Position numbers and translations under genes: made by a program. Below the pieces are notes generated by a model, which did not search any database, was not told the origin of the DNA, and saw only the letters and a list, made by a program, of their open reading frames with translations. A DNA stretch of 64,000 bases from an uncultured delta proteobacterium (GTDB taxonomy: Bacteria; Desulfobacterota; Binatia; UBA9968), in the NCBI GenBank assembly GCA_963847445.1, contig CAWJZV010000018.1:1-64000 (forward strand), read 5' to 3'. Positions 24,569-53,426 of the stretch are shown here, one piece after another. Numbering within the stretch: position 1 is the first letter of the stretch; every line of letters starts with the position of its first letter.

Positions 24569-24655
24569 GCGAAAGTGGCGGAATTGGTAGACGCGCAGGA
24601 CTCAGAATCCTGTGGGGTAACAGCCGTGGGGGTTCGATTCCCCCCTTTCGCACCA
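24569..24655 (+). tRNA. tRNA-Leu(CAG)
   Basis: GCGAAAG/CTTTCGC acceptor stem, anticodon loop CT-CAG-AA, long variable arm, GGTTCGATTCC, encoded CCA. Confidence 0.96.
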
Positions 24656-46330: not shown

Positions 46331-47002
46331 TTATATCGGCCAACTCTCCAACCGATAGGCCTGTTCCCAAAACAAATATTCGTAGCGGCTGCTGAGAATG
46401 AACAAGTCCGCCATGCGCTTTTTCTCAGCGCTCGTCGCCGCGGCAGCGAGTTCATCCACAAGCCGAATCTGCTCGCGCACCGGCTGCCAAAAAGCCTCAG
46501 ACGCGTAGGTCTCGATCCACTGGCGATAGATTTTCGGCTTGGCGGGCCGGCTCCTGAATAAACGCTTGCCGGTTTCGCCGTAGATCCAATAACAAGGCAA
46601 CACCGCGGCCACCAACTCGCCCAGACTGCCGCCGCGCGCCACCGACTGTAAGTGATCGATGTACGCCTGCGTGCGCGGCCCCCTGGGCACGGCGTCCAAC
46701 TGTTTGCGCGACAGCCCCAACGTCTTGCCGAAGCTCGCGTGAAAGCTGCGCTCGACCTCCACCGCGCCCAAGGCGTGACGGCAAAAGAGTTCTAGGATTT
46801 CCAAATTCGGCGCCTTGGCGCCGCCAAGACAGAGCACCTGAGCGAAGTCGAGAAGATAAACATAGTCTTGCAAGATGAAGTAGGTAAACCGATTCATCGG
46901 CAAGGTCCCGGCCGCCAACTCATGGAGAAACGCATGTCCGTCAATCGCCCGCCAGATACGCTCGCTTCGCTGCCGCAGCTCGACGCTAAAGTTTTTTGCC
47001 AT
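46331..47002 (-). CDS. tenA: Thiaminase II / aminopyrimidine aminohydrolase
   Basis: QDYVYL, LPCYWIY, WIETYAS, YEYLFWEQAY. Confidence 0.92.
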   Translation of the reverse strand: MAKNFSVELRQRSERIWRAIDGHAFLHELAAGTLPMNRFTYFILQDYVYLLDFAQVLCLGGAKAPNLEILELFCRHALGAVEVERSFHASFGKTLGLSRKQLDAVPRGPRTQAYIDHLQSVARGGSLGELVAAVLPCYWIYGETGKRLFRSRPAKPKIYRQWIETYASEAFWQPVREQIRLVDELAAAATSAEKKRMADLFILSSRYEYLFWEQAYRLESWPI

Positions 47003-47205: not shown

Positions 47206-48222
47206 CTATTTCAATCCGTAACTGGCGGCGATCTTGTCGATGAAACCGCTCTCATCGAGCTTGCGAATCAAGCGGCTATCGATCAGATCTTCGACTTTGA
47301 CGCTGGCAATTTTCGGATTGAGCGTGGCCAGCAGGCGGCGAATGTTGCGCATCCCGTCCACCATGGGAATCGGCCGGCGCTCGACGCCGCTCAAGTAATC
47401 CTGATAGCCCTCCTCCGCCACCGCCGGATCGGAGATCTGAAACTTGCGCATCATAGTTTTGATCACCACCGCTTTGTTCGCTGGCGACATGCTGTAGGCC
47501 AGGCTCTCGACCAGCGTCATGAGGAGTTTTTCGGCGATGTCCGCGCGCTTTTGCAGGAACTCCGGTGAGACAACGATCGCTTGGCTGAGCAAGGGAATCT
47601 TCGCCGGCTGGAGCTCGGCAATGATGGTGAATCCTTTACTGCGCAGCCGGCGCACCAATGCGCCGTCGAGAACCGCCGCGTCTACCCGACCGGCTTCGAG
47701 TGCCTGCCCGACCAAAACCGAATCGCCGATTGGCTAGTAAATTGATGTTGTCACTCTTGTAATCTAGACCGACATGTTCCAAGGCCAGGATCGTATTGAT
47801 CCAGGTGGTGCCGCCGGGATTTTGAATGCCGAAGCGTTTGCCGCGCAACTCCTCGGCGCGCTTGAGGCTCGGATGCGCGACCAGGTATGGGTCAGGGTGC
47901 TGGAGATCGACGAGAGAATTTTCAGATAAGAACCCTGCCCCGCCGCACCCAACACCGAGGTGCCGCCGGTGTAGCCGACATCCATCTCGCCGGAGACCAA
48001 AGTCGCCACCAACGTCGCCGCGGCGCGCACCAGGACGATCTTGGGATCGAGACCGTACTTGGCGAACAGACCCTGTTCCTGGGCGAGATATAGCGGCGTA
48101 GTGCGCGGACTCACGGCGGCATAGCCGATGGTGATCTTGGTTTGCGCCGACACGAGCGAAAACTGCGCCGCGGTGATTAGTAGGAAAGCCATTAAGACAA
48201 GAACCGAACGGAAGCGATTCAT
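47206..48222 (-). CDS. ABC transporter substrate-binding protein, SsuA/NMT1-like (frameshifted)
   Basis: Signal peptide, GLFAKYGLD, LRGKRFGI, ALEAGRVDA, LDESGFID. Confidence 0.85.
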
Positions 48223-48273
48223 GCTCTTCCTCCTTAATTCTTGTTCGCAGTGCAAGATTGCCAAGCAACTAGC

Positions 48274-49282: not shown

Positions 49283-50164
49283 CTATCGAAGATCCGCAAT
49301 CAGGTGCTCCGGTACCAGGCGGCTGGCTCGTGCATCCTGCAAGGCGACTTCGGCAAGCACGGCGGTGAGCGCGGCCGGCGCGACAATCAACGTCGGCTCA
49401 AACAGCTCGGCGAAGACGCGGTAACATTTGTCGAGAACCTCTGGTTTGCTCCGCAATGCCGGCAGTTGGCGCCCGATGGTAGCGCGCGCCAATGGCGCAT
49501 CGTTCTTGAATAGCTGGACACTGTCGCGATAGATCGCGGCCACCTTGCCCACCAGTTCGCGGTTACCGGCGAGAAATCGCCGTGTGGTCGCCAGCGGCAC
49601 CCACTGGCTATCGAGTGCGAGGGTATCGGCGACAATGCGCAAGCCATCGGCCTCGGCCAAGAAGGCTTTCTCCGGCGGCAACAGCGCGGCATCGAGTTCG
49701 CCACTGCGAAGCGCATCGAAACTGCGATCGTTGAGGCCGAGATCGACCAGTTCGAGATCCTTGTCGCGATCGAACTGCCAGCGCCGCAACAGCGCCAGCA
49801 TCATCATCCCCGCCATCCGGCGCGGTTGATTGATGCCGACTCTCTTCCCTTTGAGATCGGCGATGGCAGCGATCTTTTGATTAGCCACCAAATAAAATGC
49901 CGGACGGTTCAACAGGCCGCCAATCATGACCAGGTCGTTGCCGAAAAGTCCCCATTGAGCTGCGAGAAAATCAGCGACGGCGCGTTGGGGGTGCCGATGG
50001 GAATAGTCTGGGAGACGATGTCCTCGACGACTTTCTCTTCGTCGAGCTGATTGACGATCTCCGCGGCGATATTTTGCCGGGCGAACAAACCGGCCGCCTC
50101 AGCTACATATGGCAAGAAACCGGCCGATGCTCGATGTGCCTATACCAATTTTGACTTTATCCAT
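49283..50164 (-). CDS. SsuA-like substrate-binding protein (frameshifted; no obvious signal peptide)
   Basis: GLFARQ, DLKGKRVGI, ALRSGELDAALL. Confidence 0.75.
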
Positions 50165-50854: not shown

Positions 50855-51601
50855 ATGAAGCCAGAAGAATTTATCGATGAACTGTGGAGCTACGCCGCAG
50901 AAGTGCCGATGGAGCAACATCCCTGGTTCGACGGCATCATAAAGCACCGTTGGACCAAGGAGCAGATCATTCTCGGCGAGGTGCAGCACTATCTGCGGGT
51001 CAGAACCAACCCGATCTTCTTCGGCCATATGGCGATCAATGCCGTGTCGGCGAAGGAATACACCGTGATGGCGACGGTCTTGGAAAACTTCATGGAAGAA
51101 CTCGGCGGCAAGCGCACCCACGTCGACATCATGCTGCAATTTCTCGAAGCAGGCGGCATTTCGCGCGAACAGGCGGACAATGCCGAACCGGCGCCGGGCA
51201 CTTTGGCGGCAATCGAGATGATCGTTGGCTGCTGCCAGCGCCGTTCAGCCCTCGAAGGCGTCGCCATGCTCGCCTTTGTCGAAAGCCAACTCGGCGGCGC
51301 CGGCAAGATTTCCGAAAACGTTTACCGCGAGCTCACTGGCCACTACGGCTTCACGCCCCGCGCGGCCGCTACCTATCAACTCCACGCCGCCCAGGACGAA
51401 GGCCACGGCAGCCGCCAGATCGACGCCATCCGCATGCTTGCCACCGACGAAGCCACGCAAAATAAAATTCGCGCCGCGGTAAAGTTGGGATTGACCGCCT
51501 TCACGCTCGAATGGGACGGCCATGTCCAGGCGATGACCGGCAAAAGAGAGTTCTGGGGCGGCGTTAAGAATTTAAATTTACGCCAACCGAGTGCAGTGTG
51601 A
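50855..51601 (+). CDS. Heme-oxygenase-like iron-containing redox enzyme (PqqC/CADD/TenA fold)
   Basis: HPWF, ENFMEELGGKRTH, E, HAAQDEGH metal-ligand pattern. Confidence 0.8.
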   Translation: MKPEEFIDELWSYAAEVPMEQHPWFDGIIKHRWTKEQIILGEVQHYLRVRTNPIFFGHMAINAVSAKEYTVMATVLENFMEELGGKRTHVDIMLQFLEAGGISREQADNAEPAPGTLAAIEMIVGCCQRRSALEGVAMLAFVESQLGGAGKISENVYRELTGHYGFTPRAAATYQLHAAQDEGHGSRQIDAIRMLATDEATQNKIRAAVKLGLTAFTLEWDGHVQAMTGKREFWGGVKNLNLRQPSAV

Positions 51602-51765
51602 GATCAGCGGGTAACCTGCGCGGAAAAAGATCAATGGGCTAGGGCTAGCGATGCCCCCATCTCAGATCTTCCCCGAACCGGGGAGAAGTCATGTGCTCCA
51701 AAGGAAGGAAAACCCGCAACCGACTCTCGAAACTCTGACCTTGAACTTTGAACCTAGAACAGCCG

Positions 51766-51987
51766 TTAAATCGGCCACTCCTTCGGCAGATCTTTCCTAA
51801 GCTTTTTGTATTCCGCGTCGTCGCTGTGCTGGGCGCGCAACCGCTTGAGCGCCGCGACGACTTCCTTTTGATCCTGCTTCACCGCGTTGGAGACCATACC
51901 CGTGGTCTCTTCGAAGCCGAGGCTTCAATTGCTGTGTCAGCCGCGCATCCGCTTGAGAATGTACAGATCGTCGTCTTTGCTAGCCAT
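51766..51987 (-). CDS. Candidate 73-aa selenoprotein with two in-frame UGA codons (U17, U21)
   Basis: MASKDDDLYILKRMRG-U-HSN-U-SLGFEETTGMVSNAVKQDQKEVVAALKRLRAQHSDDAEYKKLRKDLPKEWPI-TAA; GAGGTG RBS 7 nt upstream; hairpin downstream of the UGAs. Confidence 0.7.
51890..51909 (-). promoter_or_regulatory. Putative bacterial SECIS hairpin
   Basis: mRNA GAGACCA-CGGGUA-UGGUCUC, perfect 7-bp stem; loop starts after 22 nt (UGA2) and 34 nt (UGA1); G at loop position 2. Confidence 0.55.
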
Positions 51988-51998
51988 GTCGGTGCACC

Positions 51999-52419
51999 TC
52001 AATTCGAGATTCCGGAAAAACCAACTTTCTGTGTGGTGATCAGCTCGGTCGCCGTTTCCGGCGCGCCGTCAGCCGTTACAGTGACGCGAATACGCACGAA
52101 AATTCGCCATGCTTCGCCGCGCCATTGGCAGTGAAAAATGACGAAGGCGTTTTCCGTAACCAATCCCGCCGGCTCGTCGCAATGGACGAGAATCGTAAAC
52201 TGCTTGCTTGCCCCCGCCGCCAATTCGAGCGCCGGCGCGAAACCAGTGCTCGGCTGATCTAAATTGGCCATGCGGCAATCGCGCCGAAATCATTGTTAAA
52301 GCAGCCGCGCCAAGATTCTCCAGCTCCCAGAGAATATTCCAACCCGCCGTCATCGCATCGCGCGCGAGCGCCATCTGGCGCAATGCAATTTTCGGTTCGG
52401 TGGTCGATTGCACCGCCAC
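51999..52419 (-). CDS. Hypothetical protein (frameshift near 52245)
   Basis: ORFs 52069-52419 and 51999-52271 join: RLPHGQFRS..APALEL..ENAFVIF..WRIFVRIRV. Confidence 0.65.
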
Positions 52420-52422
52420 AGT

Positions 52423-53426
52423 TTACTTAAGCCGGCCCTCTGCGCGCAATTCTTGCTGGGCTATTTTTAGAATGCGATCGTTGATCACTCGGTCCAAGGT
52501 AAAGTTTTTCTCGACCAGCCCGGCGCGAATATCTTCGTCGAGCATCTGCTGAAGACCCGGCAAGGCCACCGACAAGATCGCCCTTGCAAGCCGCCCGAGT
52601 AGAGATCCCAAGCCGCGCTGACGATCTCCGGATCGCCCTTCAGACCGGCATCGAAGCCCGCTTTAATCGCTTCCTTCTTGTTGAACTTGGCCAACTGCAT
52701 GCCCTGGATGTAGGCCTTGAGCATGCGCTTGCTGGTTTCGGGATATTTGTCGAGCACTTCGTTGCGCGTTACGAGAATATTCTGCGGGATCCCCAGCGAT
52801 TCACTCATGTTGCTGATGAGCGAATAGCCGGCGCGCATCAGGCGCACGCCGTCTTCGGGGGAGAACGGCGCCGCCGCGATCATGCCTTTTTCTATCGCCG
52901 CGGCGCGCAGCACTGTGCCGCCGATGGCGCGCAGGATCACGTCTTTATCGGGATTGAGATTGTGTTTGCGTAGAAATGCCTTGACGGCGAATTCCGAATA
53001 GGTTCCAGCGCCGGTGACACCGATCGGCTTGCCGCGCAAATCTTCCACCGTGCGCGTCTGCTTATTGCCGAGCAGGATATAGTTGGTCGTGCTCGAGATA
53101 CAGCCAAGTATCGTCAAGTCGAGTCCGCGCGATTTGCCGCGAAAGATCGCCTGCGCGCCGCCGATGCTGGCAAAATCCACTTCACCGGAAATCAAAGCCG
53201 CGATCGCCGCCGGACCGCCGCCAATCAGGATCGGCTCGATCTGCAACCCCTGCTGCTTGAAATAGCCGCGCGCCAACGCCGCCCGGAACGGAATCTCGCT
53301 ATTCCACGCGAGACTGACAAAGACCATGCGGACATTCTTCTTCTCCTGCGCCGACGCAACCCCAGCGCAAAGTACCGCGACGATAAGGCAAATCCCAATT
53401 TGCAGTGTTTTCCGAACACCCATCAT
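52423..53426 (-). CDS. ABC transporter substrate-binding protein, SsuA/NMT1-like
   Basis: Signal peptide, GYFKQQGL, AALISGEVDF, DLRGKPIGV; frameshift near 52580. Confidence 0.87.

Follow-up and report, generated by a model that had tools for sequence, protein, structure and literature searches.

Bacterial selenocysteine (Sec) insertion sequence (SECIS) elements are read by SelB, and that of E. coli fdhF is their prototype. These elements are described as stem-loops positioned 3′ of the UGA codon, with a G within the apical loop (PMC1088965), while bacterial selenoproteins with two close Sec residues in a UxxU arrangement are listed in a table of a 2026 review of prokaryotic selenoprotein families (PMC13188914). 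A further system relevant to the present locus is the p-aminobenzoate (pABA) synthase CADD (CT610) from Chlamydia trachomatis, a self-sacrificing enzyme with an Fe:Mn centre, in which Tyr27 is the substrate tyrosine and the Y27F substitution abolishes pABA formation (PMC9522330). Here, we describe a 73-codon gene on the minus strand of a 64,000-nucleotide stretch of DNA, referred to as the window (positions 1 to 64,000 of contig CAWJZV010000018.1, assembly GCA_963847445.1), from an uncultured delta proteobacterium of the class Binatia. The gene is very probably real and translated, and its two in-frame UGA codons, at codons 17 and 21, would both be decoded as Sec via SelB and a SECIS element.

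The gene starts with an ATG at 51987-51985 and stops with a TAA at 51768-51766. Its minus-strand frame reads MASKDDDLYILKRMRG-TGA-HSN-TGA-SLGFEETTGMVSNAVKQDQKEVVAALKRLRAQHSDDAEYKKLRKDLPKEWPI-TAA (in short form, MASKDDDLYILKRMRG-TGA-HSN-TGA-SLGFEETTGMVSN...WPI-TAA), and the encoded protein is without any Cys. A GAGGTG motif (52000-51995) overlaps the TGA stop of the preceding open reading frame (ORF; 52001-51999). The start codon, ribosome-binding site, frame, TGA positions and both hairpins given in a preliminary description of this DNA were all found again when the window sequence was re-read, as were the overlap of the second hairpin with UGA2 and the lack of Cys; that hairpin is moreover conserved. 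As the aligned sequences indicate, it is conservation, and not the window alone, that places this arrangement above chance. The elements of the gene are as follows.

51766..51987, minus strand: candidate di-selenocysteine small-protein gene, 73 codons, U17 and U21, stop TAA; homology extends across both TGAs in 80 loci, and 22 of 201 class genomes carry the gene as well
51937..51939, minus strand: UGA1, codon 17, very probably read as Sec; counts over 80 rows TGA 78, TGT 1, TGC 1; always Cys in Cys-form proteins
51925..51927, minus strand: UGA2, codon 21, very probably read as Sec; counts over 80 rows TGA 79, TGT 1; always Cys in Cys-form proteins
51912..51927, minus strand: hairpin A, a 5-6 bp stem enclosing UGA2, with a 4-nt loop; indicated by RNAalifold and frozen codons
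51890..51909, minus strand: hairpin B, GAGACCA-CGGGNA-UGGUCUC, likely SECIS; indicated by frozen codons and RNAalifold
51995..52000, minus strand: Shine-Dalgarno motif GAGGTG, 7 nt 5′ of the ATG; overlaps the stop of the upstream partner gene

The identity of the two internal codons was established in homologous loci from a contig scan at one genome per species, which returned 193 relatives; 80 of these loci were retained. The codon alignment comprises 80 rows, namely the window and 79 usable loci, one locus (L058) having been dropped for being cut at its start. Neither codon 17 nor codon 21 is TGG, TAA or TAG in any row. The genuine terminators of the same genes, by comparison, are mixed (TGA 35, TAG 34, TAA 12; n = 81). 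The exceptions to TGA are confined to two loci: L075, from Chloroflexota, has TGT at both sites and thus Cys at both, and L089 has TGC followed by TGA. Because only TGA or Cys codons occur at these positions, the terminators are mixed and the Cys forms of the protein carry C-x3-C, both UGAs are best read as Sec. This pattern, together with conservation before Met31 and the independent contigs described below, supports the earlier proposal that both UGAs encode Sec.

By record title, about 48 of the 80 loci belong to Binatia or 'deltaproteobacterial' metagenome-assembled genomes (MAGs), 22 to Chloroflexota/Limnocylindria, and 10 are scattered over other labels, which may reflect binning noise. 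Among 201 sampled genomes of the window's class, the gene was found in 22, all of which have both TGAs and five of which are single-contig assemblies. These carriers cluster in the window's own family (10/13) and its sister family (8/11), while a phylum-wide sample contained the gene in the window's own genome only (1/201). In these samples, carriers belong mostly to the window's order. When TGA was translated as Cys, a protein search returned 186 matches at E ≤ 1 among 187 candidates. Among the 120 matches listed, 105 are 43-residue calls beginning at Met31, 13 are 51-residue calls and 2 cover the whole query, which bears out the expectation that gene callers would miss or truncate the gene.

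The wider family was explored by an exhaustive HMMER search of 1.84 billion representatives, which gave 34 matches at E ≤ 0.001, including proteins of 60-133 residues with C-x3-C in the columns of U17 and U21. C-x3-C is invariant in 80-81 Cys-form rows. A profile built from the Cys forms found 114 proteins among 661 candidates; sixteen rows of this result carry an organism name, 15 archaeal (Heimdall-, Thor-, Kariarchaeaceae, Sulfolobaceae, Sulfodiicoccus acidiphilus, Metallosphaera yellowstonensis MK1, Thermoplasmata and Geothermarchaeales) and one Chloroflexi. Across Sec and Cys forms, C/U17, C/U21, M31, R64 and P68 are invariant in both alignments, while F25 and T28 are invariant in one (A2) and nearly so in the other (A5). 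In a quick IQ-TREE analysis of 67 columns, in which most inner forks are unresolved, 77 Sec forms together with L075 and L089 form one clade (Shimodaira-Hasegawa-like approximate likelihood-ratio support 98), separate from 78 Cys forms. The bacterial Sec forms are thus placed, on the sequence comparison, as one clade within a wider CxxxC family of about 71 residues that is chiefly archaeal. L075 and L089 nest among the Chloroflexota Sec forms and L075 retains hairpin B almost intact, which fits a secondary change from Sec to Cys in these two loci.

Conservation does not begin only at the internal Met31, a point that the preliminary description had singled out: both conservation and coding periodicity start well before it. 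Entropy at the first, second and third codon positions is 0.74/0.46/1.25 for codons 7-16 and 1.02/0.58/1.43 for codons 34-73, with the order third > first > second in both ranges. Judged by this periodicity, the stretch before Met31 is coding.

The region downstream of UGA1 is constrained at the RNA level as well. Hairpin A, (U)GAAGC/CUCG/GCUUC(G), begins 9-10 nt past UGA1, and hairpin B, whose 7-bp stem and loop read GAGACCA/CGGGUA/UGGUCUC in the window, has its loop beginning 34 nt past UGA1 and 22 nt past UGA2. The 69-nt stretch folds at -28.5 kcal/mol (z = -3.47), with none of 200 shuffles as stable, and RNAalifold predicted both hairpins unprompted. Paired cells amount to 99.1%, against 22.6-54.8% with slid partners. 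In hairpin B, codons 27, 28, 29 and 31 are GAG, ACC, ACG and ATG in 80/80 rows, and at codon 32, 79 rows have GTC and one has GTT, the latter preserving a G-U pair; in its CGGGNA loop the G's are invariant, the sole variation being the wobble position of Gly30. The motif occurs once in the window's own genome. Hairpin A is paired in 97.9% of cells, with Gly24 encoded by GGC in 73/73 rows, Phe25 by TTC in 77/80 and the R22-U31 pair being G-U (47) or A-U (28). Synonymous sites are therefore frozen in the stem codons 24, 27, 28, 29 and 32, while invariant residues outside the stems vary in codon (Gly16 uses three, Asn20 two and Ser33 four), as does Gly30 in the loop wobble (four). Such frozen stem codons are, as far as the alignment goes, what a SECIS inside a coding sequence predicts. 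EETTGMV is invariant only in the Sec forms, with EETTGM relaxed to xxT[IV]xM in the Cys forms, which fits the strict Sec-form motif being imposed by the RNA. As a stem-loop 3′ of a UGA with G in a small apical loop, hairpin B agrees with the described bacterial SECIS. An Rfam search of 51600-52100 gave no match at E ≤ 10. The selD gene of the same genome (C14:194887-195726) resembles the region of UGA2 and hairpins A and B in its layout: a 5-bp hairpin opens within its UGA, and a short one with a CGGGC loop comes after. This likeness, noted by eye in a single gene, does not count as evidence here. FdhA, considered as a second SECIS comparator, was found only as frameshifted pieces lacking a TGA.

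Decoding could proceed as follows. Hairpin B, formed by the EETTGMV codons, would be the SelB-binding SECIS, and as the ribosome pauses at each UGA it would recruit SelB carrying Sec-tRNA. Hairpin A may be a second SECIS for UGA1 or a shield of UGA2 from the release factor. The alternatives are that hairpin B serves both UGAs, or that A serves UGA1 and B serves UGA2.

The genome to which the window belongs carries a selA-selB-selD cluster on contig C14, with selA at 569.8 bits, selD at 360.3 bits and the pieces of selB spanning model positions 2-580; its selD holds one in-frame TGA. The preliminary description had tied its proposal to the presence of selA, selB, selC and selD: selA, selB and selD are present, while an intact selC was not found in the window's own assembly. 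In relatives, tRNA-Sec scored above the Rfam cut-off in 5/5 genomes tested (75-77 bits), three of them from the same genus. Among the 22 carriers in the class, 21 have selA. In five other genomes, all incomplete MAGs, selA turned up in the three with TGA/TGA but not in the two whose form is Cys/Cys or Cys/TGA. A trace of tRNA-Sec exists in the window's genome as an exact 28-nt copy of its 3′ end (C12:77575-77602); this fragment is preceded by AT-rich DNA (43.7% G+C) and looks like the att-site remnant of an element integrated at selC. A sub-threshold Rfam tRNA-Sec match in the window (24569-24651, plus strand; 39 bits against a cut-off of 47) is probably an ordinary long-arm tRNA. The SeC call made by ARAGORN on contig C2 was rejected as probably false, being 82 nt long, without an Rfam match and unlike the 95-nt tRNA-Sec of the relatives.

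The possibility that the two TGAs are artefacts of sequencing or assembly, or that the gene is a pseudogene in decay, has to be considered in view of the many indel errors in this assembly: selB lies in four frame pieces, the partner gene upstream of the small gene is frameshifted near 52240, apparent single-base indel errors occur at 52225-52245 (minus strand) of the window and at C14:191492-194790, and selA has an in-frame TAG (C14). An independent DNA contig of about 98% identity has one base fewer exactly at 52240. The small gene, by contrast, is free of indels across all 80 aligned rows, in agreement with the earlier argument that the visible errors are indels and would not explain two in-frame TGAs. 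Independent read evidence was taken from Logan contigs, of which one from DNA and two from metatranscriptome libraries of other studies cover the site with no difference at either TGA. The RNA-library contigs span 51887-52148 and 51808-52008, taking in both UGAs and the boundary to the upstream gene, and leaving parts of the stretch uncovered; they are no proof of transcription and are silent on expression level, strand and transcript ends. Across independent assemblies, 78-79 of 80 loci have these two TGAs, as do the 22 class genomes, five of them single-contig. By these codon counts, class-genome carriers and independent contigs, an artefact or pseudogene is effectively refuted.

Two further explanations would accept the DNA and dispense with Sec. 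In one, a 16-codon leader ORF ending at UGA1 is followed by a separate 43-residue protein starting at Met31, with the hairpins acting as regulatory RNA (an attenuator or translational coupling device) and no recoding. Met31 is indeed invariant, the 43-residue form is what most database calls report, and the hairpins are strongly conserved without covariation; however, Met31 is equally invariant in the Cys forms, where no start is possible, and those forms read through with an invariant CxxxC, as L075 and L089 do in part with Cys codons in place of TGA. The internal sites use TGA as their sole stop against mixed genuine stops, residues 18-30 are conserved as amino acids with codon periodicity, and the AlphaFold2 model is a single domain over residues 4-65 with a predicted local distance difference test score (pLDDT) of 88.5, all of which makes this arrangement exceedingly improbable. 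In the other explanation, the UGAs are read through without Sec, by near-cognate tRNA-Trp or another programmed read-through stimulated by the hairpins. Two JGI proteins, P0001 and P0002, have W at both positions, and the missing selC would agree with such a mechanism; yet TGG occurs in 0/80 rows at either site, no sense codon other than TGT and TGC appears there, and the wider family needs Cys at both positions. The carriers moreover have Sec machinery, and a hairpin stands at the SECIS position with G in its apical loop (PMC1088965). We therefore regard read-through without Sec as very improbable.

Several points nevertheless weigh against decoding of both UGAs as Sec. The assignment at both sites comes from sequence comparison, and the service of two UGAs 12 nt apart by one or two hairpins is an inferred step; the function proposed below is drawn from gene neighbourhood alone. 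No intact tRNA-Sec gene was found in the window's own assembly (91.8% complete), where the Rfam model gave nothing above its cut-off. As selA is common in the class (156/201 genomes), its co-occurrence with the gene is consistent with the proposal without discriminating, and is weak evidence. Compensatory double changes were seen in 0/12 pairs, all pairs being invariant, so that covariation proper was not found and the RNA argument rests on the frozen synonymous sites. Finally, the database entries of P0001 and P0002 carry W at codons 17 and 21. The loci closest to them (96% and 85% identical) have TGA at both sites and no row has TGG, which makes a gene call with translation table 4, as metagenome callers may apply it, the likely source of the W.

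The structure of the small protein was modelled with AlphaFold2 on the family alignment, which predicts a four-helix domain (predicted template modelling score 0.72) with helices at residues 4-21, 25-35, 40-54 and 58-65. At the end of predicted helix 1, a single turn separates U17 from U21. The preliminary description had not recognised the family, and database searches agree with it: Pfam has no family for the protein at E ≤ 0.1, NCBIfam gave a chance-level match only (for the window protein, a natural Cys form and nine distant Cys homologues), and the family profile, run against PDB sequences, matched at chance level only (E ≥ 0.62). In VIA, the model has Z scores of 5-6.3 to many helix-turn-helix (HTH) domains (6ext_A: Z 6.3, root-mean-square deviation (rmsd) 2.8, 70 aligned), the best match being a de novo design (Z 8.9). 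The HTH classes compared were sigma-70 region 4, GerE and the LysR N-terminal domain, with Foldseek E ≥ 0.74 and atlas TM-scores of 0.55-0.65, and no HTH family in Pfam matched the protein. The neighbours of the predicted fold are thus only generic, being HTH-like or designed-helix structures. A search for longer, fused forms of the protein found none, which is weak evidence.

Two neighbouring genes accompany the small gene.

51999..52419, minus strand: upstream co-directional gene for a beta-sandwich protein of about 140 residues, of no known family; split by a 1-nt frameshift near 52240
50855..51601, plus strand: convergent gene for a CADD-like heme-oxygenase-like dimetal oxidase (HDO); Pfam PF14518 and PF03070; ORF open from 50813, with a conserved start Met at 50855

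The beta-sandwich partner lies co-directionally upstream in 78/78 loci with enough upstream flank, typically 13-40 nt away. Its AlphaFold2 model is an eight-strand beta-sandwich (pLDDT 92.6) whose best structural match, among many Ig-like folds, is ApaG (1xvs_B: Z 9.8, rmsd 3.1, 108 aligned), a match that is uninformative; Pfam and NCBIfam gave no match for this protein. The HDO gene is on the opposite strand in 65 of the 71 loci with enough downstream flank. The closest solved structure to its product is CT610/CADD (PDB 1RCW), with E = 4e-14 and residues 6-202 aligned. Seven HDO residues (E105, H108, E140, H151, E205, D247 and H250, in L103 numbering) are invariant in 26 rows, and we take them to be the metal ligands from the alignment to CT610 and the ligand numbering of CADD. 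In the HMMER alignment to 1rcw, CADD Tyr27 is replaced by Phe (HPWF) and Lys152 by Val, and the protein scores 58.7 bits against TIGR04305, under its 200-bit cut-off. These three features argue against a self-sacrificing enzyme of the CADD type, and by sequence the HDO is a CADD relative with different chemistry.

Cys-form loci were examined in four metagenome contigs, found with a single protein (P0153) as query, and in 4/4 a gene for this kind of HDO comes immediately after the small gene. By Pfam on ORF calls, the HDO has an N-terminal zinc finger in 3/4; in the fourth (L104), a tblastn alignment likewise extends over the full zinc-finger HDO. The gene after the HDO is Ta0938-like or of the Ta0938 family. 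Ta0938 was found in 0/80 bacterial loci and the beta-sandwich partner in 0/4 Cys-form loci. Since the HDO adjoins the small gene in both groups, the pairing of small protein and HDO is the part common to Sec- and Cys-form loci. In two of the four Cys-form loci (L102, 1479-2671; L103, 878-2163), ThyX (PF02511) immediately precedes the run of small CxxxC gene, zinc-finger HDO and Ta0938, a hint of a connection with folate or thymidylate metabolism. In the window, a DUF411 gene (PF04214; 53467-53784, minus strand), which we take to belong to a copper-related family, lies two genes upstream of the selenoprotein pair and recurs upstream in 24/80 loci. Genes for NMT1/THI5-like periplasmic binding proteins are present at 52485-53426, 47206-48268 and 49283-49927 (all minus strand), some apparently frameshifted; the ORF at 52485-53426 has a C-terminal tail out of character, and the region at 47206-48268 is spread over frames. 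A TenA/PqqC-like ORF lies at 46331-47002.

On the evidence of this neighbourhood, the small protein is most likely a diselenol/dithiol redox or metal-handling partner of the HDO. The U-x3-U pair could form a diselenol/diselenide or a soft-metal site serving the adjacent HDO, for example by reducing or metallating it. A more ambitious version, which we consider unlikely as it stands, is that the U-x3-U helix works specifically for a CADD-like HDO that has lost its sacrificial tyrosine, as a diselenol/diselenide redox module or a metal-delivery one, and that this ancient two-protein system, with CxxxC in archaea, was upgraded once to a double Sec in the Binatia/Chloroflexota kind via a tandem-hairpin signal in which one hairpin encloses UGA2. 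Were this so, the small protein would reduce or re-metallate the HDO, or supply a residue in trans, and allow its repeated turnover.

The locus would represent a new family of selenoproteins, marked by an unusual U-x3-U pair and by a recoding region with two hairpins, and involving no new mechanism. The string UxxxU occurs nowhere in the text of the 2026 review, supplements aside (PMC13188914). It is likewise absent from deep-Sep, and neither deep-Sep nor BSepDB has 'two Sec' or 'multiple Sec'; a literature search found no paper linking selenoproteins and Binatia. An earlier listing in the BSepDB family table or in Haft & Tolstoy 2025 is possible. The gene adds a selenoprotein family overlooked by annotation, represented in NCBI and JGI entries by 'hypothetical' fragments of 43 or 51 residues, that is common in abundant uncultured soil and sediment lineages. 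It offers a natural case for how SelB serves two UGAs 12 nt apart, and it ties an uncharacterised archaeal and bacterial CxxxC family to an uncharacterised HDO branch, giving each a testable partner.

Compared with described systems, the resemblance to CADD concerns the neighbouring HDO and not the small protein: the HDO shares the heme-oxygenase-like dimetal fold and the Glu/His/Asp ligand columns, but has Phe for Tyr27 and Val for Lys152. The small protein itself is homologous over its full length to archaeal 71-residue CxxxC 'hypothetical proteins', such as those of Sulfodiicoccus acidiphilus, Metallosphaera yellowstonensis MK1, Heimdall- and Thorarchaeota and Thermoplasmata, with which it shares invariant residues and an adjacent HDO gene. 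These proteins, likewise uncharacterised, differ in having Cys for Sec and no frozen EETTGM hairpin, and in the gene order of the Cys-form loci (small gene, zinc-finger HDO, Ta0938-like gene, with the beta-sandwich partner in none of the four). With the UxxU selenoproteins described in the review table, the family has in common its small size, two UGAs a few codons apart, a bacterial SECIS within the ORF, Cys homologues and a presumed redox or metal role (PMC13188914), whereas here the U-x3-U pair lies on an alpha-helix of a predicted four-helix, HTH-like bundle, with no sequence relationship by NCBIfam and Pfam. The closest likeness in recoding is to the bacterial SECIS read by SelB, an in-ORF stem-loop directly 3′ of the UGA with a small G-bearing loop (PMC1088965). 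As in that system, the element constrains the encoded residues, here EETTGMV in the Sec forms only; unlike it, two UGAs 12 nt apart share one region, and a second conserved hairpin encloses UGA2.

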